27,053 bases of DNA from Burkholderiales bacterium. Lineage in GTDB: Bacteria > Pseudomonadota > Gammaproteobacteria > Burkholderiales > CAIKXV01. Location of the stretch: NCBI GenBank assembly GCA_044351195.1, contig JBILGF010000001.1, forward strand, positions 1 through 27,053, given 5' to 3'. Shown piece by piece: positions 595-25,974 of this stretch. The notes under the pieces were generated by a model that was given only the letters and a program-made list of their open reading frames with translations, ran no database searches and was not told the DNA's origin. A program made the position numbers and the translations under genes. The first letter of the stretch is position 1. Every line of letters starts with the position of its first letter.

Positions 595-1593
595 ATGCGC
601 GAACCGTCGGGAGTACACAGGGGTGGCCTGCTTGCGGCCGCAGGCGTGATGATGGCTGTTGCGATGCCCGGCCTGTCACAGGCCCGGTCGCCTGCGGCGT
701 ATCCGGTGAAGCAGGTGCGCATGCTGGTCGGCTTCGCTCCGGGCGGCTTCACCGACGTGATGGCGCGTGCGATCGCCGGGAAGCTCTCGGAGGCCTGGGA
801 CCAGCAGGTGGTGGTCGACAACCGACCCGGCGCCAGCACCACCATCGCGACCGACATCGTGGCGAAGGCACCGGCCGACGGCTACACGCTGCTGATGATG
901 ACCGACAATTTCGTCACCAACCCCAGCCTGCTGTCGAAGCTGCCCTACGACTCCGAGCGCGACTTCGCGCCGGTGACGCTCGCTGCGATCGCGCCGTTCC
1001 TGCTGGTGGTGCATCCGTCGCTTCCAGTGAAGTCGGTCAAGGAACTCGTGGCGCTCGCGCGCAAGCGCCCTGGCGAACTGAGTTACGGTTCCGGCGGTAT
1101 CGGTTCACCGGGGCATCTGTCCGGGGAGCTGTTCGGCACGCTGGCAGGGGTCAGCATGGTGCATGTCGCGTACAAGGGTGCTGCACCTGCATTGATCGAT
1201 GCGATGTCCGGGCAGATCCAGGTCTATTTCGGGAACCTGCCGGTCACGCTGCCGCATGCGGCGTCCGGCAAGCTGCGGTCGCTCGCGGTCACCTCGCCCA
1301 GGCGCACGCCGGCGGTGCCCGAGATCCCGACGGTGGCCGAAGCCGGCGTGCCTGGCTTCGAGCTGAGCCCCTGGTATGGCGTGATGACGCGGGCAGGCGT
1401 ACCCGAACCGATCCTCGATCGTATCGAGGCGGACACCGTGCGCGCACTGCGTGACCCCGAGATGCGTGCACGCATCCTGAAGATGGGTGGCGAGCCCGCA
1501 GGCACCGCACGGGCCGAGTTCGCGGCTTTCCTGAAATCGGAGAGCGTGAAGTGGGGCCGGCTGGTGAAGGCTTCGGGCGCGAAGGCGGAGTGA
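595..1593 (+). CDS. Bug/TctC family tripartite tricarboxylate transporter substrate-binding protein
   Basis: Signal peptide, VGFAPGGFTD, VDNRPGA, APADGYTLL, YKGAAPA, WYGV motifs; C-terminus LVKASGAKAE. Confidence 0.95.
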   Translation: MREPSGVHRGGLLAAAGVMMAVAMPGLSQARSPAAYPVKQVRMLVGFAPGGFTDVMARAIAGKLSEAWDQQVVVDNRPGASTTIATDIVAKAPADGYTLLMMTDNFVTNPSLLSKLPYDSERDFAPVTLAAIAPFLLVVHPSLPVKSVKELVALARKRPGELSYGSGGIGSPGHLSGELFGTLAGVSMVHVAYKGAAPALIDAMSGQIQVYFGNLPVTLPHAASGKLRSLAVTSPRRTPAVPEIPTVAEAGVPGFELSPWYGVMTRAGVPEPILDRIEADTVRALRDPEMRARILKMGGEPAGTARAEFAAFLKSESVKWGRLVKASGAKAE

Positions 1594-1609
1594 TCCGGTC
1601 CTGAGGCGG

Positions 1610-1640
1610 CAGCGAGGCTCGAGGTGGATGCCTCGCGCTG
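1610..1640 (+). terminator. GC hairpin after Bug stop (no U-tract)
   Basis: GCGAGGC/GCCTCGC stem extended by CAGC/GCTG with a bulge, 17 nt after the stop at 1593. Confidence 0.3.
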
Positions 1641-1663
1641 CGGGTCGATCGCTGCAAGGTGAT

Positions 1664-1702
1664 GATCCGGTGGTCAAACAGTCGGGCATACGGCCCGAGT
1701 GA
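1664..1702 (+). pseudogene. Possible remnant of a Bug/TctC C-terminus
   Basis: Reads DPVVKQSGIRPE*; compare LVKAVGIKPE*, VVREAGIQPD*, LVKASGAKAE* in intact paralogs. The in-frame upstream sequence is not Bug-like. Confidence 0.4.
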
Positions 1703-1932
1703 GCGGCCTGTCATGTCGAGGCCAGGGACGGAGCGGTCGGCGGGCTTTCACCTGGTACTCCAGCGAATGGTGACGCCGCTGATGCGTTCGCTGCTCGACT
1801 GACCCAGGGCGCAGCCTTCACCCGATCCGGAGCAGATCCACGGTTGCCCGTTAAACTCCGCCCCGACCATCGCTCCGGGCCCGTGAACGCTGCATGCCCG
1901 GTCCGCTCTGCCATCGACCGAGGACGCACGCC

Positions 1933-3330
1933 ATGGCCCATGACGCCAGCAGCGACAACCGCCATACCCGAGGCATCGCCGAGTTCGTCTCCGGGCTGCG
2001 CTACGAGGCGATTCCGCCCGAGGTCGTGGCTCGGATCAAGCTGCTGATGCTCGATTCGCTCGGCTGCGCGCTCTATGGCGCCGACCTCGAATGGAGCCGC
2101 ATCCTGCAGCGCACGCTGTCGGGCGTGGACTCGACGCGGACCTGCCCGGTCTGGGGTACCGGGGTGCGCCTGTCGGCGCCGCATGCAGCGCTGGTCAATG
2201 GCACCCAGGTGCAGGGGTTCGAGCTGGACGACGTGCACCGCGCCGGCGTGCTGCATGTCGGCGCGGTCGTGCTGCCGGCGCTGATCGCCGTCGCGCAGAT
2301 GCGCCCGGGGATGACCGGGCGCGAGTTCCTCACCGCAGCGGTCGCGGGCTACGAGATCGGCCCACGGGTCGGCTTGTGCATGGGGCCCGAGCATATCGCG
2401 CAGGGCTGGCATTCCGGCGCGACGCTGGGCGTGTTCTCGGCGGCGGCCGGTGCGGCGCGCGGGCTCGGGCTGGACGCCGAGCGCACGGTACACGCGCTGG
2501 GCATCGCCGGTACCCAGTCTGCAGGGCTGATGGCGGCGCAGTACGGTGCGATGGTCAAGCGCATGCACGCCGGGCGCTCCTCGCAGAGCGGCCTTTACGG
2601 CGCACTGCTCGCCCGCGATGGGTTGACCGGCATCGTCAACGTGCTGGAGAGCGAGTACGGCGGTTTCTGCACCACGTTCTCCCGTTCGACCGACCGTTTC
2701 AAGCTGGCGGAGCTGACCGCGGGGTTCGGTTCCGTCTGGCAGACCATGGGCGTGGCGCTGAAGTTCTATTCCTGCGTCGGCAGCAACCACACCACGCTCG
2801 ATGCGATCCGCGACATGCAGGCCGAGCGGCCGTTCGGTGCCGAGGAGGTCGAGCGCGTCGTGGTACATGGTTCGCAGGTCACCATGGACCATGTCGGCTG
2901 GTCCTACGTGCCGCAGGGCCTCACGTCGGCCCAGCTCAACCTGCCGTACTGCGTGGCAACCTGGCTGATCGAGGGCGACTGCTTCGTGGACCAGTTCACC
3001 GAGGCCAGGGTGGCGGATCCCGAGCGCATGCGCGTCGCGCAGAGGGTGTCCGTCCGGCACGACGACGAGATCACCGCCAAGGGTGCAAGGTATCGCCACG
3101 AGGTGCGCGTGGAGTTGTGGCTGAAGGATGGCACCCGGTTCGAGCGCCGGGTCGAGTCGGCGCGCGGCAGCGAGTATCGCTTCGCCAGCGACGCCGACGT
3201 CATCGACAAGTTCGAGAAGCTCGCCTGCAAGGCCCTGTCGCCAGCCCGAGTGGCTGAGTTGCGCGACACGATCCTCGGCCTGGACCGACTGGACGACGCC
3301 TCGACCCTCTGTGAGTACCTTGTGCCGTAG
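1933..3330 (+). CDS. MmgE/PrpD family protein
   Basis: LDSLGCALYG, NGTQVQGFELDDVH, HVGAVVLPA, KRMHAG, CVGSNHTT motifs; ATG 1933 preceded by GAGGA. Confidence 0.93.
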   Translation: MAHDASSDNRHTRGIAEFVSGLRYEAIPPEVVARIKLLMLDSLGCALYGADLEWSRILQRTLSGVDSTRTCPVWGTGVRLSAPHAALVNGTQVQGFELDDVHRAGVLHVGAVVLPALIAVAQMRPGMTGREFLTAAVAGYEIGPRVGLCMGPEHIAQGWHSGATLGVFSAAAGAARGLGLDAERTVHALGIAGTQSAGLMAAQYGAMVKRMHAGRSSQSGLYGALLARDGLTGIVNVLESEYGGFCTTFSRSTDRFKLAELTAGFGSVWQTMGVALKFYSCVGSNHTTLDAIRDMQAERPFGAEEVERVVVHGSQVTMDHVGWSYVPQGLTSAQLNLPYCVATWLIEGDCFVDQFTEARVADPERMRVAQRVSVRHDDEITAKGARYRHEVRVELWLKDGTRFERRVESARGSEYRFASDADVIDKFEKLACKALSPARVAELRDTILGLDRLDDASTLCEYLVP

Positions 3331-19968: not shown

Positions 19969-22613
19969 GGCTGCAGCGGCTCAAGGTCGAGCAGCTGCGC
20001 CAGTTCCGCCAGCCGTTCGAGATCGACGACATCAAGCCCGGTCTCAACCTGTTCGTCGGTCCGAACGAGGCGGGCAAGAGCACGCTGGTGCGCGCCATCC
20101 GCGCCGCGTTCTTCGAGCGGCATCGTTCGTCCACGGTCGAGGATCTGCGGCCCTGGGGCGACTCGTCCGCGACACCGACCATCGAGCTCGATTTCACCGC
20201 CGGCGGCACCGGTTACCAGTTGCGCAAGTCGTTCCTGCAGCGCAGGCGCTGCGAACTGCAGCACGGCACGAAACGGCTCGACGGCGAGGATGCGGAACAG
20301 CATCTGGCCGCACTGCTCGGCTTCAGCTTCCCGGCCAAGGGCGCGAGCCGTCCCGAGCTCTGGGGCATCCCCGGCCTGCTGTGGATCGAGCAGGGTCAGG
20401 CACCGGAGATCCGGGACTCGGTGAAGCATGCGGCCGACCACCTGCGTACCGCGCTCGAGTCATCGGTCGGTGAAGTCGCCAGCACCCAGGGCGATGCGCT
20501 GATCGCGAAGGTGCGCAGCGAGCGTGAGCTGCTGCTCACCCCGGGAACCGGCCGGCCGACCGGCGAGCTGAAGAAGGCGATCGACGTGCGCGACGAGTCG
20601 CAGGCTCGCCTGCAGGAGATCGACGCGCGCATCGACACCTGGCGCCAGCAGGTCGACCGCTTCGCCGCGCTGCAGGCCGAGCACGCGGTCGAGGCCGCGG
20701 GCAAGCCCTGGGAGTCGTTGCGCAACCAGCAGCACGCGGCTGAACAGGCGCTCGCCGGATGCGAGGCGCTGGGGCGCCGGCTCGAGTCCGACACCGTGGC
20801 GCTGCGCGAGGCCGATGCGCGCGTGCGGCTGATCGAGCAGCAGCTGGCCGCCTTCGACGAAGAGCGCCGGACGCTGGCGCAGCGCGAGCACGGGCTGGCC
20901 GATGCCGCGCAGCGGCTCGAAAGCGCTGCCGAGATCGAGCAGCGGCGTGCAACCGCACAGGCCCGGGCTGATGCCCTCTGCCTCGCCGCCGCCACCGAGC
21001 TCGACCGCGCCCGGCAGCGCGACCTGCACGATGAGCTCTCGCTGCGCGTGGGCGAATCGGCCGCGCGCATCGACGAACTGGAAGCGCGGTTGCAGCGCTG
21101 CGACGCGGGGCAACTGCGCATCGGTGGGCTGCGCGAACAGGCGGCGGCGACGGCAATCGATGCGGCGGACGTGGACCGGCTGCGCGAGCAGTCGCGTACG
21201 CTCGATGCGCTGCGCATCCGGCAGCAGGCGGCCGCCACCCGTATCCGCTTCGACATCGTGGACGGCGCGTCCGCGACGTTCGACGGCGTACCCCTGGCCG
21301 GCAGCGGCGAGCGCCTGATCGGCGCGGCCACGATCATCGACGTGCCGGGCACCGGTCGATTCGAGATCCTGCCCGGCGGCGATTCGCTCCCCGCGCTCGT
21401 GCGCGACGAGGCCGACCGGCAGGCCGCCCACCACGACCTGCTTCGGCGCTGCGGCGTGGCGAGCCTGGCCGATGCCGAGGCCCGGCTGGCCGCCCATCGG
21501 CAGGCGACGCAGGATGCCGCGCTGGCGAAGGCGGCCGTGGACAGTCTCGCACCGCAGGGCATCGACGCGCTGCAGGCAGAGCTCGCCACGCAGCGCGCGC
21601 GCCGGCAGACAGCACTGGATCGGCTCGCCACGCTCGGCCGTGCTTCAGGCGAGCACGGCGACTTGGCCGCACCGACGCTCGCCGAAGCCGAGGCGCGCCA
21701 TGCGGCGGCGAAGCTGCATGCCGATACGCTCGCCGCGCAGCTTGCCGAGGCAAGGCAGGCACGGCTGGTCGCGCACGAGCAGCATGAAGCGGCCGTGCGC
21801 GAACATCGCGCGCTGACGGCGCGCCTCGATGCACCGGGCCGCCAGGCGCGGCAGACCGAGGCGGGCGGCCAGCTGCTGTCCACGCGTGCGGAGCAGGACG
21901 CGCTGCGCGCATCGATCGCGGCCACGACCGATGCGATCGAGGGTGCCCAGCCCGAGATGCTGAAGCAGTCGGTGGAGCGCTTCCGGCTCAGTGCCGAGCT
22001 CGCGCGGCGTGCGCACGACGACCGGCAGGCGCAGATCACCCTGCTGCGGGGCAAGCTCGAGGAGGCGGGCGCCCAGGGCTTCGAGGAAGCTCGCGCCGGC
22101 CTCGCGGTACGCGCGCAAGCGGCGCTGCGCCGCCATTGCGAACTCGACCTGCGCGCGCGTGCGCTCGACCTCCTGCTCGACCGGCTCGAGGCGAAGCGCA
22201 TGGACCTCACCCGCCGCATGCGCGCACCGCTGCAGGCACGCATCGACCACTACATCCGGCTGCTGTTCCCGAAGGCGGCGCTGGAGATCGGCGAAGACCT
22301 GCTGCCCGCGCTGCTCACCCGTCCCGACAACCCGGGCGAGCCGTCGGGCCCGGTCGCTGACCTGAGCCACGGCGCACGCGAGCAGATGGGCGTGCTGACC
22401 CGGCTCGCCTATGCCGACCTTCTGCAGGAGGCCGGGCGCCCGACGCTGGTGATCCTGGACGATGCGCTGGTGCACAGCGACCTGCAGCGCCTGGAACGGA
22501 TGAAGCGCGTGCTGTTCGATGCAGCCGGGCGCCACCAGGTACTGCTGTTCACCTGCCACCCGGACGCGTGGCGCGACCTGGGCGTGGCAGCGCGGGCGAT
22601 CGGTCGCGCCTGA
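19965..22613 (+). CDS. SbcC/Rad50-like coiled-coil ABC ATPase (YhaN-type)
   Basis: ATGA overlap with the nuclease; Walker A GPNEAGKST, Q-loop IEQG, long coiled coil, signature LSHGAREQ, Walker B/D-loop VILDDALVHSD, H-loop FTCHP. Confidence 0.92.
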   Translation: MRLQRLKVEQLRQFRQPFEIDDIKPGLNLFVGPNEAGKSTLVRAIRAAFFERHRSSTVEDLRPWGDSSATPTIELDFTAGGTGYQLRKSFLQRRRCELQHGTKRLDGEDAEQHLAALLGFSFPAKGASRPELWGIPGLLWIEQGQAPEIRDSVKHAADHLRTALESSVGEVASTQGDALIAKVRSERELLLTPGTGRPTGELKKAIDVRDESQARLQEIDARIDTWRQQVDRFAALQAEHAVEAAGKPWESLRNQQHAAEQALAGCEALGRRLESDTVALREADARVRLIEQQLAAFDEERRTLAQREHGLADAAQRLESAAEIEQRRATAQARADALCLAAATELDRARQRDLHDELSLRVGESAARIDELEARLQRCDAGQLRIGGLREQAAATAIDAADVDRLREQSRTLDALRIRQQAAATRIRFDIVDGASATFDGVPLAGSGERLIGAATIIDVPGTGRFEILPGGDSLPALVRDEADRQAAHHDLLRRCGVASLADAEARLAAHRQATQDAALAKAAVDSLAPQGIDALQAELATQRARRQTALDRLATLGRASGEHGDLAAPTLAEAEARHAAAKLHADTLAAQLAEARQARLVAHEQHEAAVREHRALTARLDAPGRQARQTEAGGQLLSTRAEQDALRASIAATTDAIEGAQPEMLKQSVERFRLSAELARRAHDDRQAQITLLRGKLEEAGAQGFEEARAGLAVRAQAALRRHCELDLRARALDLLLDRLEAKRMDLTRRMRAPLQARIDHYIRLLFPKAALEIGEDLLPALLTRPDNPGEPSGPVADLSHGAREQMGVLTRLAYADLLQEAGRPTLVILDDALVHSDLQRLERMKRVLFDAAGRHQVLLFTCHPDAWRDLGVAARAIGRA

Positions 22614-22664
22614 CGTTCGTGCCTGACGTTCGCGCCTGACGTTCGCGCCTGACGTTCGCGCCTG
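22604..22664. repeat. 13-bp tandem repeat, ~4.7 copies
   Basis: TCGCGCCTGACGT at 22604, 22617 (one C>T), 22630, 22643 and partial at 22656; the first copy contains the ATPase TGA stop. Confidence 0.95.
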
Positions 22665-22728
22665 CCGGTCGCCGACCAGGACGTAGCCCAGGACGTCGAT
22701 ACTCGCGACGCCCTGCAGCGATCCCCGG

Positions 22729-23076
22729 TCAGCGCGCGCCGGCGGCCCGCCCGCGCATCGCCGCTACCGGCCACACATACGCCGCCGCGATCGCCCCGAA
22801 CCCTGCGCCGATCGCGGCGAGGTTCGCCCAGTCGACCCAGTAGCCCATCTCTGCGAGCGAGGACTTCGTGAGGTAGGGCACGACGAGTACCGACACCACC
22901 ATGACCGCGATGCCGGCGAGCACGGCGGTACCCAGCCCTGCGCCCCAGCGCGCCCCGGGCCGGCGCAGCGCGACCACGACCAGCGCGATCCAGGCCAGCG
23001 CGGCGACCAGCAGCGCGGGCCAGATGCTCATGGCGATTTCCCAGACGATGTTCATTGCAAGCCAGATCTCGTACAT
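22729..23076 (-). CDS. Small integral membrane protein (~3 TM), SQR-associated; possibly DUF5368-related
   Basis: GAGGAG RBS before ATG 23076; three hydrophobic stretches and an SSLAEMGYWVDW loop; 14 nt downstream of the SQR-like stop. The DUF assignment is recollection only. Confidence 0.8.
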   Translation of the reverse strand: MYEIWLAMNIVWEIAMSIWPALLVAALAWIALVVVALRRPGARWGAGLGTAVLAGIAVMVVSVLVVPYLTKSSLAEMGYWVDWANLAAIGAGFGAIAAAYVWPVAAMRGRAAGAR

Positions 23077-23090
23077 GGTGTTCTCCTCTT

Positions 23091-24452
23091 TCAGACGCGG
23101 CCGCGTGCAACGGCGAGGTAGGCGGGCTTGAGCAGGCGATCCTTCATCAGCCATGCGAGGTAGCTGTCCTGCAGGGGAGAGATCATCGGCAGCGATGGCA
23201 CCAGCCGGCCTTCATAGTCGAACTCGATCAGCATCGCGGAACCTTCCCGGGTGATCAGCGGGCAGGACGTGTAGCCATCGAAGGTCATGTTGGGCGGGCG
23301 TCCCGCGATCACCTCGGACAGGTTGTGCGCGACTACCGGGGCGCTCTTCTTCACGGTGGCCGCGGTCTTGCCGCGCGGCGTGCCGTTGACGTCGCCGATG
23401 CCGAACACGTTCGGATAGCGGCGATGCTGCAGCGTCGACTTGTCGACCTCGAGCCAGCCGCCAGCGGCGAACGGGGCCTGCTTCGCGGCGAGGTCGCTGT
23501 TGCGCACTGCATCGGGGGCGCGCGTGGGCGGCACCACATGGATGAAGTCGTAGGGTTTCTCCTGCTTCGAGCCATCAGCGGCAACGAAGGTGGCGCGACG
23601 TGCGCCGATATCGATCGATTCCATACGCTGGTTGAACTCGACGCCGATGCCCAGCGCCTTCCAGCGCGAGAGCACGTTCTCGTTGACCGTGGGCACGCCG
23701 AACACGTTGCCCAGCGCCGACTCGAAGGTGATGCGTGATTTCTCGAGCATGCCGGCCTGGCGCAGCCGGTCGCGCAGCATGAAGGTCATCTTGAGCGGGG
23801 CACCCGCGCACTTGAGCGGTGTTGCCGGCAGCGTCATCAGTGCCTCGCCACCGGTGCGGGTGAATGCCTGCATTGCGCGCCACGTGGCCTCGGCCGCCTG
23901 TGGGCTGGGATAGACGCTGGCCAGGCCGTTGCTGCCGATGGCGGATACGTCCATGCCGGCGATCTGTGCGTAGTCGAGGTGAACGCCGGTGGCGACCACG
24001 AGGTAGTCGTAGGCGATGCGTTTGCCGCTGGCGGTAGTCAGGCTGTTCGATTCCGGTTCGAAGGTGGCGACCATCTCCTTCACCCATTCGACGCGGCCCG
24101 GCTGCAGGTCGGCATTGCGCTCGCGTACCTTGGCCATCGGCCACACGCCGGTGGCCACCAGCGTGTATCCCGGCTGGTAGTTGTGCTCTTCCTTGGCGTC
24201 GACGATGGTGATCTTCACCCCGTCGAGCAGCTTGCCCAGCCGTGCGGCGACCGCGATGCCGCCCAGGCCGCTGCCGGCAATCACGACATGCGCGCTGGTG
24301 CGGACCGAGGCGCGCACCTTCGCCGGCGTGCCGGTGGCGGCGGCGGCCGCCGGCGCGAGCAGCAGCGCCTGCATCCATCGTCGGCGCGACGTGTCCCCGC
24401 AGGTGTCGGGGGGCGCGGCGGTCTGGTCGGTTCGCGGCTTCAGGGGTTGCAT
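23091..24452 (-). CDS. sqr: Sulfide:quinone oxidoreductase-like flavoprotein (type II motifs) with twin-arginine leader
   Basis: Rossmann VVIAGSGLGG, HNYQPGYTLV, KCAGAPLK, NVFGIGD, FDGYTSCPLIT (both catalytic Cys motifs of type II SQR); leader SRRRWMQALLLAPAAAAA; GAGGAG RBS. Confidence 0.85.
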   Translation of the reverse strand: MQPLKPRTDQTAAPPDTCGDTSRRRWMQALLLAPAAAAATGTPAKVRASVRTSAHVVIAGSGLGGIAVAARLGKLLDGVKITIVDAKEEHNYQPGYTLVATGVWPMAKVRERNADLQPGRVEWVKEMVATFEPESNSLTTASGKRIAYDYLVVATGVHLDYAQIAGMDVSAIGSNGLASVYPSPQAAEATWRAMQAFTRTGGEALMTLPATPLKCAGAPLKMTFMLRDRLRQAGMLEKSRITFESALGNVFGVPTVNENVLSRWKALGIGVEFNQRMESIDIGARRATFVAADGSKQEKPYDFIHVVPPTRAPDAVRNSDLAAKQAPFAAGGWLEVDKSTLQHRRYPNVFGIGDVNGTPRGKTAATVKKSAPVVAHNLSEVIAGRPPNMTFDGYTSCPLITREGSAMLIEFDYEGRLVPSLPMISPLQDSYLAWLMKDRLLKPAYLAVARGRV

Positions 24453-24560
24453 GCAGTGACTCCTCACAATGGCGCTGGGGCGGTGCGCGGTTGGACGATG
24501 GGTCGTTCTATGCCCCTGCCTGCGGCTCAGCGTCCGGGCTGGATACGCGCATGGATACGT

Positions 24561-25004
24561 TCACGGCGCCACCGAGATCGGCGCGCCGTCCGGCTTGCGC
24601 TCGAGCAGCGCATGGATGCCCATGCCGGCCAGCATGGCCAGCACGAACACGGCTGCCTTCGTCTCGCCCATCCCGAGCGCGACCAGCGCGGGCCCGGGGC
24701 AGAACCCCGCGATGCCCCAGCCGATGCCGAACAGGAGGCTGCCGCCGACGAGTCGGCGGTCGAGTTGCGTTGCAGTCGGCATGCGCATCGGCTCGCCGAG
24801 CAGCGACCGCGTGCGGCCGCGGGCGAGCCCGAAGGCCACCAGCCCGACGGCGATCGCGCCGATCATCACGAAGGCGAGCGAAGGGTCCCAGCGGCCAGCG
24901 AGGTCGAGGAAGCCCAGCACCTTGGCCGGGTTGGCCATGCCGGACAGGATCAGGCCCAGCCCGAAGACCAGCCCGGCGACGAGTGCAGAAAAAGACGGCT
25001 TCAT
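24561..25004 (-). CDS. YeeE/YedE family sulfur-compound transporter subunit
   Basis: GLVFGLGLILSGMANPAKVLGFLD, WDPSLAFVM, LFGIGWGIAGFCPGPAL; start trimmed to ATG 25004. Confidence 0.92.
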   Translation of the reverse strand: MKPSFSALVAGLVFGLGLILSGMANPAKVLGFLDLAGRWDPSLAFVMIGAIAVGLVAFGLARGRTRSLLGEPMRMPTATQLDRRLVGGSLLFGIGWGIAGFCPGPALVALGMGETKAAVFVLAMLAGMGIHALLERKPDGAPISVAP

Positions 25005-25024
25005 GGTGCGGGCTCCGGGTGCGG

Positions 25025-25456
25025 TCAGGCGAACAGGTGGCGGACGAGGAACACCGTGACGAACCCGGCGCCCATGAAAGTGAGGGTCGCGACCAGCGAG
25101 CGCAGCGACAGGCGGGACAGCCCGCATACGCCGTGTCCGCTGGTGCAGCCGGACGCGTATCGGGTACCGATGCCGACCAGGAGGCCGGCGGCCACCAGCG
25201 CGCCATACGACGCATCGATCTGCACCTGCGGGACAGGCGACAGCAACAGCCAGGCGATCGGTGCCGCCACCAGGCCGGCCACGAACGCTGCGCGCCAGCC
25301 GATGTCGCTGCGCACGGGCACGAGCAGCCCGCCGACCACCCCGCTGATGCCGGCGATGCGGCCGTTGAAGAACAGGAGGATCGCCGCGGCCAGTCCGATC
25401 AGCACGCCACCGGCGGCAGCGGTGGCCGGGGTGAATGAATTCCAGTCGATGCCCAT
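25025..25456 (-). CDS. YeeE/YedE family sulfur-compound transporter subunit
   Basis: GGVLIGLAA, GRIAGISG, GLLVGIGTRYASGCTSGHGVCGLSRLS. Confidence 0.93.
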   Translation of the reverse strand: MGIDWNSFTPATAAAGGVLIGLAAAILLFFNGRIAGISGVVGGLLVPVRSDIGWRAAFVAGLVAAPIAWLLLSPVPQVQIDASYGALVAAGLLVGIGTRYASGCTSGHGVCGLSRLSLRSLVATLTFMGAGFVTVFLVRHLFA

Positions 25457-25460
25457 GGCT

Positions 25461-25775
25461 TCAGTCCTTCGGACAGTAGAGCGTGTACAGAACCTTGAGG
25501 ATCTCCAGCATCGCCGGATCGGCGACGCGGTAGTGGATCTGCTTGCCGTCGCGCCGGGTGCTCACCACGCCTTCGTTGCGCAGCACGCCCAGTTGCTGCG
25601 ACAGCGTCGGCTGGCGGATGCCCAGCGCTTCCTCGAGTTCGCCGACGCAGGCTTCGCCCTGCGACAGCTGGCACATCAGCAGCAGCCGATCTTCGTTGGC
25701 GAGCACCTTGAGTGCGGACACCGCCTTGCCCGCAGCGGCGCGCAGTACGGCGGGATCGATGGCGGTTTTCTGCAT
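25461..25775 (-). CDS. bigR: BigR-like persulfide-sensing ArsR/SmtB repressor
   Basis: LANEDRLLLMCQL, VGELE, QPTLSQQLGVLR, LYTLYC; Cys35 and Cys101 are 66 residues apart as for Xylella BigR Cys42/Cys108. Confidence 0.88.
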   Translation of the reverse strand: MQKTAIDPAVLRAAAGKAVSALKVLANEDRLLLMCQLSQGEACVGELEEALGIRQPTLSQQLGVLRNEGVVSTRRDGKQIHYRVADPAMLEILKVLYTLYCPKD

Positions 25776-25790
25776 GGCAAATGGCCGAAA

Positions 25791-25836
25791 GCTTTCAATA
25801 TACTGAACAATAAAATATATCTAGATAGAATGTCAA
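25791..25836 (-). promoter_or_regulatory. Sigma70 promoter with overlapping AT-rich candidate operator for the bigR operon
   Basis: Minus strand TTGACA (25836-31), 18-nt spacer, TATTGT (25812-07); palindrome TATCTAGATA (25818-27); ATATACT-N9-AATATAT; most conspicuous AT-rich island in the window. Confidence 0.65.
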
Positions 25837-25974
25837 CTGGTACCGACGTCTGTTCGTCCTGTCGTTCTCCTCCCCCACGGCTCCCCCGCCATTTCTCCAT
25901 CCCCCCGCTTGCGCGCCGCGCCGCTAACCCGGAACATCCGGCCCTCCCCACCCGCGGCCGCGAAGGCACATCGC

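Follow-up and report, generated by a model that had tools for sequence, protein, structure and literature searches.

A Tat-signal sulfide:quinone oxidoreductase and its predicted DUF5368-like membrane partner form the conserved core of a BigR-YedE cassette in a lake lineage of Burkholderiales

How might a gene cassette for sulfide oxidation work when its oxidoreductase appears to be exported and no persulfide dioxygenase (PDO) is encoded beside it? This question is raised by a five-gene locus on the minus strand of the window, that is, the whole stretch of 27,053 nt of Burkholderiales DNA that was analysed. In the direction of transcription, the locus comprises a bigR-like gene (25461..25775) encoding a BigR/SqrR-like, ArsR-family persulfide-sensing repressor of 104 aa; two genes for half-size YeeE/YedE membrane proteins, one of the YedE1 type (25025..25456, 143 aa) and one of the YedE2 type (DUF6691; 24561..25004, 147 aa); a gene for a type II-like sulfide:quinone oxidoreductase (SQR) of 453 aa with a predicted Tat signal (23091..24452); and a gene for a protein of 115 aa with three transmembrane (TM) segments, a distant DUF5368 member (22729..23076), hereafter the partner. 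The original prediction had described five co-directional genes behind a promoter, separated from the end of bigR onward by 4, 20, 108 and 14 nt, with all expected cysteine motifs intact and no PDO or rhodanese gene. The open reading frames and their coordinates agree with this description, the cysteines of the BigR-like protein, both YedE proteins and SQR are all present, and no MBL-fold or rhodanese match was found anywhere on the contig of the cassette (C443). Upstream of the bigR-like gene lies a divergent SEC-C-motif gene (start at 25909) and downstream of the partner gene a convergent SMC-like ATPase gene (end at 22613).

A promoter scan combined with reading of the sequence located a sigma-70-like promoter (TTGACA-18-TATTGT) at 25807..25836 on the minus strand. 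It matches the consensus at 10 of 12 positions, and the scan gave 2 sites when 0.2 were expected. This site is also kept in the two closest relatives, and the related loci L014, L015 and L022 share the -35 hexamer and AT-rich blocks with the cassette. Inside the promoter spacer, a perfect 10-bp palindrome, TATCTAGATA (25827..25818), is a candidate BigR operator; the -10 region is where BigR has been reported to bind (PMC5823870). The promoter/terminator scan found no terminator-like site in the 108-nt gap or in the rest of the cassette. Thus, the short gaps, the lack of a terminator-like site and the single conserved promoter argue for one operon of five genes. The 108-nt gap between the yedE2-like and SQR genes (24453..24560) could house an internal promoter. 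Contigs from RNA libraries, in which DNA carry-over is possible, span only pieces of the cassette. As for the junction between the yedE2-like and SQR genes, one contig of a lake metagenome run (X2) crosses it with zero differences, and in another lake metagenome (X3) two overlapping contigs span it with few differences.

The bigR-like protein carries the ArsR helix-turn-helix domain (PF01022, E 4e-15) and its best NCBIfam match is BigR. Because its score against this model (NF040642) was 104.2 bits, under the equivalog cut-off of 155, we call it BigR-like and not BigR. Its alpha2 and C-terminal cysteines (C35/C101) are separated by 66 positions, exactly as in the pairs of Xylella BigR (C42/C108; PMC5823870) and Acinetobacter baumannii BigR (C34/C100; PMC7315123). 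The YedE1-like (PF04143, E 1.3e-7) and YedE2-like (PF20398/DUF6691, E 1.9e-60) proteins have the layout of a split transporter, two adjoining half-size proteins with one conserved essential cysteine each: Cys104 coincides in position with CpYedE1 Cys104, which is essential, and Cys102 corresponds to the essential Cys101 of CpYedE2 (positions from PMC10812762). The proposal that this pair moves sulfur across the membrane instead of feeding an adjacent cytoplasmic PDO survived in its first half. A homologous YedE1/YedE2 pair carries zero-valent sulfur, in the inward direction only (PMC10812762), and a cytoplasmic PDO most likely remains the destination of the imported sulfur, since a type II PDO is encoded on another contig of the host genome (C115, L005:1027-1986; PDB 4ysk, E 3e-108).

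Lack of PDO is consequently a property of the locus and cannot be taken as a trait of the organism, whose genome is 81% complete and gives a partial gene inventory. Nor is it special to this cassette, as had been supposed: PDO genes occur in only 25 of 80 related loci versus 17 of 20 loci of leaderless SQRs. Since loci of this SQR clade normally lack PDO, its absence reflects neither erosion nor a cassette-specific feature, and the opposite case, in which homologous cassettes nearly always include PDO and this one has lost it, does not hold. Judging from the sequence, the eroded gene in the cassette is an alpha/beta-hydrolase gene and not PDO. The 108-nt gap keeps the last ~60 nt of this deleted gene (about 24464..24524); in blastn comparisons, ~925 nt of L014 and L015 are missing here and homology restarts ~60 nt before the hydrolase stop codon.

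The five genes had also been presented as one system, a view that the related loci do not sustain. BigR and the YedE pair lie beside this SQR in only 3 of the 80, and BigR/YedE pairs equally accompany leaderless SQR-PDO operons. The cassette is therefore a lineage-specific join of two modules, BigR-YedE1/YedE2 and SQR-partner, and the juxtaposition of YedE and SQR need not mean a dedicated hand-off. These counts would suit a reading in which rearrangement and deletion made the modules neighbours by accident and each works independently: the SQR pair would serve sulfide detoxification or respiration, its polysulfide or sulfur product staying outside, and BigR-YedE1E2 would scavenge environmental sulfane sulfur or thiosulfate, with no dedicated shuttle. 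It would also account for the scar of the deleted gene at the module junction and for the content of most other loci of the SQR pair, where its neighbours include FisR-like activators, cytochrome bd and rhodaneses, some of the latter with a signal-peptide-like N-terminus among the representatives, and further genes. However, three species-level lineages with 84-90% DNA identity retain the arrangement, the stretch is present in lake and river metagenomes from 17 studies, and the one promoter-like site and the missing terminator speak for joint transcription. Moreover, a periplasmic SQR product would need an inward carrier of sulfane sulfur to reach the cytoplasmic PDO (PMC10812762). We thus consider accidental neighbourhood unlikely, although it keeps appreciable weight.

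SQR and the partner are the conserved core of the cassette. The partner gene lies directly 3′ of SQR in 78 of the 80 related loci, the 2 misses being contig ends, with gaps mostly of 10-58 nt, whereas the 20 leaderless SQR loci fetched contain no partner gene within 1.5 kb. In 400 sampled genomes, all nine canonical DUF5368 genes were directly downstream of a Tat-signal SQR; the DUF5368 profile PF17336 and the nine top SQR matches (365-438 bits) selected the identical 9 genomes, always as adjoining pairs. The partner of the cassette itself matched PF17336 with E 0.27 (11.9 bits), under the gathering cut-off of 25. Weak matches were obtained for 16 of 24 partner homologs (best E 3.3e-5), and a PF17336 search of the 81% complete host genome gave no match. 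In the reverse direction, an HMM built from the alignment of partner homologs (A1) was run on 30 loci and picked out the 9 canonical DUF5368 proteins without exception (E 6e-11 to 4e-5) and no other protein. Reciprocal profile matches and the same genomic role indicate that the partner belongs to a divergent sister group of the DUF5368 Pfam family, a family that was not mentioned in the literature searched. Related stretches numbered 525 in species-representative genomes, and partner proteins formed 282 clusters at 50% identity.

The partner gene is preceded by an AGGAG ribosome-binding site 7 nt upstream of its start, and its product consists of an N-terminal amphipathic helix and three TM segments, with no Cys and no His. 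Its AF2 model reached a pLDDT of 92 and resembled none of the solved structures in a structure search; a protein atlas offered a VcrB cluster at 0.79, which serves as a lead only. The predicted complex of SQR and partner scored 0.84, and the best of 3 controls scored 0.00. Among solved complexes 58 of 80 attain the mark for this score, and among mismatched pairs 2 of 110 do so; the calibration is only rough here because we supplied the alignments, of 24 rows each, ourselves and let FAD ride along. With no solved structure like the partner, a remembered template is unlikely to explain the result. Together with the co-location, this prediction upholds the claim that the three-TM protein is a genuine SQR partner. 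In the predicted interface, residues 420-453 of SQR face residues 2-17 and 67-86 of the partner, which hold the invariant polar residues N9, E13, S72 and D82 and are placed on the periplasmic side by the positive-inside rule; a further predicted contact involves SQR 403-405, just past the loop of the catalytic Cys397.

According to this model, the partner is probably the membrane anchor of SQR, since its amphipathic helix and TM2-TM3 loop, both periplasmic, would clamp the enzyme at its C-terminal membrane-binding region, which is shortened; the partner would probably shape quinone access as well. Alternatively, it might bind SQR as neither anchor nor quinone-site subunit and serve as a helper in assembly or Tat targeting, a regulator of activity, or a conduit by which hydrophobic sulfur (S8 or polysulfide) enters the membrane or moves along it. 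A partner is dispensable for other type II SQRs, which are monotopic, as in Cupriavidus pinatubonensis CpSQR (PMC9163753) and the leaderless loci above, a pure anchor would not obviously need the invariant interface residues, and the contact past the Cys397 loop could touch the sulfur exit. On the other hand, the lack of Cys and His makes covalent sulfur relay or heme binding unlikely, and the periplasmic interface does the same for a cytoplasmic role in Tat targeting. Most of the predicted contacts fall on the C-terminal membrane-binding region, and it is precisely in partnered SQRs that this region is shorter: Tat-clade enzymes stop 2-3 residues past the aligned region and leaderless ones extend 10-42 residues further. 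We find such non-anchor roles quite improbable and retain the anchor as the preferred function.

The flavoprotein aligned with human SQOR (PDB 6oi5) at E 6.6e-74, both catalytic cysteines included, and shares 35-41% identity with bacterial type II SQRs. It also matched PF07992 (E 2e-14), in keeping with an FAD-binding Rossmann fold. In human SQOR, the counterparts of its C215 and C397 are the cysteines within KCAGAP and TSCPL, which we take to be Cys201 and Cys379; C215 and C397 are invariant across 24 homologs and are the only two cysteines of the mature protein, with no third (type I) cysteine. In the PDB search, human SQOR gave 252 bits, type I Aquifex aeolicus SQR 87 and FccB 55, no type III structure being among those compared. 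The best NCBIfam match was the type III selenoprotein SQR model, with 195 bits against a cut-off of 525 in a comparison that included no type II model. Identity with FccAB was rejected, as there was no PF21706 or PF09242 match and the partner is devoid of Cys and His. A true FccB-like gene sits elsewhere in the genome (contig C36).

Residues 1-48 of SQR (24452..24309) read as a Tat signal peptide. The N-terminus contains TSRRRWMQ, followed by ALLLAPAAAAATG and then VRA and S, with RRRW at 23-26 and VRA at 46-48, and the GSGLGG motif comes directly behind. This layout, RRxW/F, a hydrophobic stretch and AxA right before GSGLGG and the FAD fold, was present in ~75 of 80 homologs and, among the distant SQRs linked to DUF5368, in all 9, versus 0 of 20 for other type II SQRs. 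It is kept across deep divergence, down to 43% identity. The Tat/DUF5368 SQRs fall on one side of a long branch in a quick tree. As had been anticipated, SQR very likely faces the periplasm. Throughout the Tat-SQR/DUF5368 clade, export, sulfide oxidation and complex formation are predictions. That the flavoprotein stays inside or does not oxidise sulfide, its RR stretch being a non-functional extension or its substrate a different one, would agree with the cytoplasm-facing type II SQRs studied to date (PMC9163753) and with the best NCBIfam match lying far under its cut-off, but is highly improbable given the conserved Tat layout, the invariant catalytic cysteines, the sulfide-oxidation neighbours in other genomes (PDO, rhodaneses, FisR-like activator, cytochrome bd) and the Tat motifs already reported on type II SQRs of Epsilonproteobacteria (PMC4584964).

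Taken together, the genes present with their motifs, their co-occurrence across genomes and the predicted interface lead us to favour, with reasonable confidence, a single persulfide-derepressed operon that joins BigR-YedE1E2 to a two-subunit periplasm-facing SQR, with sulfur flowing to the unlinked PDO. Export, activity, sulfur hand-off and regulation are what we infer from them. In the first module, a BigR/SqrR-type repressor would control a split YedE1/YedE2 importer of sulfane sulfur into the cytoplasm; in the second, a type II-like flavoprotein would be exported folded via Tat and joined by its DUF5368-family subunit. Sulfide oxidation would take place on the outer side of the inner membrane, with electrons passing to quinone, and the polysulfide or sulfane-sulfur product would enter through YedE1E2 to yield glutathione persulfide, which the type II PDO on C115 would oxidise. 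Cytoplasmic persulfide would also oxidise the BigR cysteine pair and so keep the operon on. More tentatively, and with our belief just short of even, DUF5368 and its divergent betaproteobacterial branch may constitute the membrane subunit of an undescribed heterodimeric class of Tat-exported, periplasm-facing type II-like SQRs, wired in this lake lineage to YedE1E2 and a persulfide sensor as a periplasm-to-cytoplasm sulfur shuttle toward a distant PDO.

SQR is usually viewed as a single-subunit monotopic enzyme, and the type II enzymes studied in heterotrophs are cytoplasm-facing and PDO-coupled. Here, a widespread clade appears to be active on the opposite membrane face, together with a small subunit that is obligate. 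If true, the site of sulfane-sulfur production would shift, its handling would fall to periplasmic rhodaneses or to YedE1E2 import, and the reading of genomes for sulfide oxidation would change. DUF5368, a family without function, gains a testable role, and a plausible source of substrate in nature emerges for the YedE1E2 importer. As it is abundant in lake metagenomes, the cassette may matter for freshwater sulfur cycling.

Small membrane anchors are found in reductive dehalogenases, whose RdhB/PceB/VcrB proteins are three-TM anchors of ~100 aa encoded beside a Tat-exported catalytic subunit. The partner is analogous to them in size, number of TM segments and location, with no detectable relation in sequence or fold and with other cofactors and chemistry involved. 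With type II SQR/SQOR enzymes (human 6oi5, CpSQR), the cassette SQR shares the FAD fold, the two catalytic cysteines in KCAGAP/TSCPL contexts and, in the case of human SQOR, a core that aligns as a whole. It differs from them in its predicted cleavable Tat signal, shorter C-terminus, apparently obligate small membrane partner and separate deep clade in the quick tree, and, compared with leaderless type II SQRs, in being rarely beside PDO (25/80 versus 17/20 loci); CpSQR is oriented toward the cytoplasm and has a fused DUF442 domain (PMC9163753). Type II SQRs of Epsilonproteobacteria share the N-terminal twin-arginine motif and a predicted periplasmic action (Han and Perner 2015, PMC4584964); that report notes the motif only and describes no partner protein. 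The parallel drawn earlier with Xylella and Serratia operons is apt for the bigR-yedE half of the cassette and fails for the SQR-partner half. The BigR operons of Xylella and Agrobacterium, PigS/PmpAB of Serratia and bigR-yeeE-yedE-pdo2 of A. baumannii likewise have an ArsR-type repressor with the same cysteine pair, followed by two half-size YeeE/YedE genes (PMC5823870, PMC7315123). They carry Blh or PDO2, in contrast to the cassette, which has a putatively exported SQR and its partner instead and lacks PDO. Finally, the transporter half resembles YedE1E2 of C. pinatubonensis (PMC10812762), with which it shares two adjoining half-size genes by an ArsR regulator and, compared by published positions, the conserved cysteines (104 in both, and 102 versus 101).

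The five open frames of the original prediction were found between 25836 and 22729, all on the minus strand. Reading of these frames identified the gene of a 104-aa ArsR-family protein (bigR-like, 25775..25461), followed by two genes of half-size YeeE/YedE proteins, yedE1-like (25456..25025, PF04143) and yedE2-like (25004..24561, PF20398/DUF6691), by sqr (24452..23091), which encodes a 453-aa flavoprotein, and by a partner gene (23076..22729) that encodes a hydrophobic protein of 115 aa. The intergenic gaps are 4, 20, 108 and 14 nt, and a ribosome-binding site (AGGAG) lies 7 nt 5′ of the partner gene start. A promoter-like site, TTGACA-18-TATTGT (25836..25807, minus strand), is kept in the closest relatives, and a search for terminator-like sites inside the cassette found none. 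A 10-bp palindrome, picked out by eye from the promoter sequence, is a putative, unproven BigR operator; an inverted-repeat finder run on the promoter found no repeat. Since the cassette is flanked upstream by a divergent SEC-C-motif gene (start 25909) and downstream by a convergent SMC-like ATPase gene (end 22613), there is no space for more cassette genes. A 13-nt tandem repeat, TCGCGCCTGACGT (22604-22672; 5.3 copies, 92% matches), covers the stop of the SMC-like ATPase gene and extends into the spacer before the convergent partner gene.

Two metatranscriptome libraries contained short contigs that match parts of sqr and of bigR at ∼98% identity. They were not counted as RNA support for expression, because such contigs cannot show transcript, strand or extent and DNA carry-over is possible. 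A single 198-nt contig from the lake metatranscriptome run X20 joined window position 22752 to 24597, so that the 3′ part of yedE2 runs straight into the final codons of the partner gene, with sqr and the partner gene left out (1844 nt, 4-nt overlap). This junction, weakly supported by a shorter side of 53 nt, may come from a strain variant that lacks the SQR module, or it may be an assembly artefact.

The whole core of the flavoprotein aligned with the human mitochondrial sulfide:quinone oxidoreductase (SQR), SQOR (E 6.6e-74), and the alignment takes in both catalytic cysteines. These residues, C215 and C397, are invariant in 24 homologs and are the sole cysteines of the mature protein. Ahead of the FAD fold, the N-terminus carries TSRRRWMQ, an Ala/Leu-rich stretch and VRA followed by S, which, judged from its sequence, is the layout of a twin-arginine (Tat) signal. 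In the literature searched for type II SQRs that are periplasmic or bear a Tat signal, we found only the remark of Han and Perner on Tat motifs carried by type II SQRs of Epsilonproteobacteria (PMC4584964); CpSQR is oriented towards the cytoplasm (PMC9163753). The same genome encodes a second sulfide-oxidising candidate on contig C36 (L013, G000:C36:824-2083, minus strand), an FccB-like flavoprotein with flavocytochrome c sulfide dehydrogenase central and flavin-binding domains and 25% identity to the window SQR.

To see which genes of the cassette travel together, we surveyed the neighbourhoods of the best 80 of 525 related stretches from species-representative genomes, these 80 being from Burkholderiales and Rhodocyclales with 65-92% identity. 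Part of the co-occurrence anticipated by the original prediction held: the three-TM partner gene lies directly 3′ of sqr in 78 of the 80 loci, and the two exceptions stop at a contig edge. The Tat motif and an AxA directly before GSGLGG were seen in ∼75 of these best 80. The other part did not hold, as bigR and the YedE pair accompany the Tat-signal SQR in only three loci. Two of them, L014 and L015, have the gene order of the window; in the third, L022, bigR-yedE1-yedE2 is divergent from pdo-sqr-partner, the two facing. Therefore, the five-gene cassette is a lineage-specific assembly, in which SQR and its partner form the conserved unit. This pair also occurs in Sphaerotilus sulfidivorans, Rubrivivax benzoatilyticus and Ottowia thiooxydans.

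Other recurrent neighbours of the SQR pair were rhodaneses, DUF302 and CMD-family proteins, a FisR-like sigma-54 activator, cytochrome bd and a second SQR type. Two families of small proteins, whose representatives of 184 aa (L038:9885-10436) and 137 aa (L026:4797-5207) have no Pfam match, each occur ≤3 kb from the pair in 12 loci; the 137-aa representative has a signal-peptide-like start and the 184-aa one a polar N-terminus and then a hydrophobic stretch.

The window partner protein gave no significant match to Pfam or NCBIfam. Sixteen of 24 partner homologs match DUF5368 (PF17336), weakly, and in a protein atlas the window partner falls among DUF5368 clusters; on its sequence, we assigned it to a divergent betaproteobacterial branch of this family. 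The aligned homologs share a near-invariant N-terminus, MYEIWLxxNIxWE, and a loop motif, SSLxEMGYWVDWANL. This is a small, uniform family (282 clusters at 50% identity, nearly all of 105-125 aa) that is named ‘hypothetical protein’ in public sources, and the term ‘DUF5368’ appeared in no paper of the literature searched. Two apparent SQR-partner fusions from public gene calls, P0230 (529 aa) and P0208 (361 aa), were not used as Rosetta-stone evidence; they do not look like natural fusions, as P0230 contains scrambled, frameshift-like stretches and P0208 resembles a gene call that is chimeric or has an internal deletion.

A PF17336 search of 400 genomes sampled across the phylum returned 9 full-length genes, all nine directly 3′ of an SQR gene whose product is 43-48% identical to the window SQR. 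When these genomes were searched with the window SQR, the same 9 formed a separate top group (365-438 bits), below which came ∼36 more type II SQRs (35-41% identity). We fetched 20 of these further loci for comparison. None of the 20 SQRs carries a Tat motif, and none of the 20 loci contains a partner detectable with the profile of our partner alignment, which recovers 9/9 canonical DUF5368 proteins. About half of these leaderless SQRs have a DUF442-like N-terminal extension (CRTGTRS-type motif), their C-termini run on for 10-42 residues versus 2-3 in the Tat group, and a type II persulfide dioxygenase (PDO) gene lies ≤1.5 kb away in 17 of the 20. A quick tree, rooted on the FccB-like protein of the window's genome, separated 24 Tat/DUF5368 SQRs from the 20 others by one long branch (SH-aLRT 94 and 91, no bootstrap); this tree is supportive only, because the groups were picked by the feature and the search was a quick one.

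The AlphaFold model of the partner (pLDDT 92) contains an amphipathic helix (2-17) and long helices at 19-38, 44-69 and 80-107. Lys and Arg counts in its four non-membrane segments are 0, 3, 1 and 3, which argues for a topology (N-out, C-in) that places both the N-terminal helix and the TM2-TM3 loop on the periplasmic side. Modelling of mature SQR (residues 49-453) with FAD and the partner gave a complex score of 0.84, compared with 0.00 for the best of 3 controls. Of 80 solved complexes, 58 attained the 0.84 mark, as did 2 of 110 mismatched pairs; these counts apply only roughly here, since we used our own alignments and a riding ligand. The model thus supports binding of SQR to its partner, short of proof. 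The predicted interface joins SQR residues 103, 403-405 and 420-453, the C-terminal membrane-binding region, to partner residues 2-17 and 67-86, which coincide with the invariant motifs and with the predicted periplasmic segments. Hence, three independent lines, namely conservation, topology and the predicted exported location of SQR, agree on the modelled interface. When the PDB was searched for folds like that of the partner model, nothing matched at E ≤ 0.001 (best E 5.1), which gives no functional information; as no solved structure resembles the partner, the score is unlikely to come from template memory.

Gene content, motifs, co-occurrence and predicted interface were obtained directly, and from them we infer the following steps. 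After folding with FAD in the cytoplasm, SQR would be exported by Tat and would bind its DUF5368-type partner on the outer surface of the inner membrane. There it would oxidise sulfide, pass electrons to quinone and release polysulfide or sulfane sulfur in the periplasm. YedE1E2 would import this sulfur as glutathione persulfide, an unlinked PDO would convert the persulfide to sulfite, and persulfide would inactivate the bigR-like repressor. In the chief alternative, both modules would be mere neighbours under a shared promoter, without sulfur hand-off; the rarity of BigR and YedE beside this SQR (three of the 80 loci) speaks for it, as does the occurrence of YedE pairs next to leaderless SQRs. 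The observation behind the original prediction was confirmed and its interpretation, a periplasm-facing module with sulfur transfer by the YeeE pair, was supported in part.

As predicted, the window's contig (C443) has no MBL-fold or rhodanese match. The genome, a MAG of 524 contigs and 81% completeness, nevertheless does encode a clear type II PDO, on contig C115 (L005, G000:C115:1-3306; 1027-1986, minus strand), which matches PDB 4ysk (E 3e-108) and the dioxygenase part of Blh (E 2.5e-114). The PDO gene is flanked by the genes of a Crp/FNR-type regulator (2294-3304) and of a flavodoxin-like/FMN reductase (378-1094), next to the final part of a gene for cytochrome bd subunit II (1-327), and so may be under other, possibly oxygen-linked, control than the SQR cassette. 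The other MBL-fold genes of the genome were rejected as PDOs, being GloB, lactonase-like, RNase Z-like and similar genes. A further protein of 593 aa (L002, G000:C434:1234-3012, minus strand), which has a GloB-like MBL domain at its C-terminus (residues 343-583) and an N-terminal half with no family assignment, was not counted as a PDO.

Erosion of a PDO gene from a cassette that nearly always includes one was rejected, since a type I (ETHE1-like) or type II PDO occurs in only 25 of the 80 related loci (≤3 kb in 18; 17 of the 58 loci having ≥5 kb on both sides), a PDO is missing from the two closest relatives as well and the scar in the gap belongs to an alpha/beta-hydrolase gene. The absence of an adjacent PDO is typical for this SQR clade. 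Relative to L014 (4785-5858) and L015, where the hydrolase gene is intact between yedE2 and sqr, the window is without ∼925 nt, and the last ∼60 nt of the gene remain (24464-24524, minus strand) in the 108-nt gap (24453-24560). One contig from the lake metagenome run X2 crosses the deletion junction with no differences, and therefore the deleted form is real; the window stretch as a whole is present in lake and river metagenomes from 17 studies. Hydrolase homologs lie beside the SQR pair in 15 of the 80 loci, usually just 3′ of the partner gene.

The obligate DUF5368 partner is absent from the literature searched, as are its combination with BigR and YedE1E2 and, consequently, a two-subunit exported SQR. 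Operons with BigR-yeeE-yedE and PDO or Blh are already known (PMC5823870, PMC7315123). The bigR-like protein has BigR as its top NCBIfam match (104 bits, below the cut-off of 155), and its Cys35 and Cys101 are 66 residues apart, the same spacing as in the sensing pairs of Xylella BigR (C42/C108, PMC5823870) and A. baumannii BigR (C34/C100, PMC7315123). Likewise, the single conserved cysteines of the yedE1-like and yedE2-like proteins, at 104 and 102, match the essential cysteines of C. pinatubonensis YedE1 (Cys104) and YedE2 (Cys101), two proteins whose genes also adjoin an ArsR regulator and which accelerate uptake, not export, of zero-valent sulfur, supplying a cytoplasmic PDO (PMC10812762). 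The cassette as a whole is assembled from known kinds of genes, and its interesting core is the putatively exported SQR with its membrane partner.
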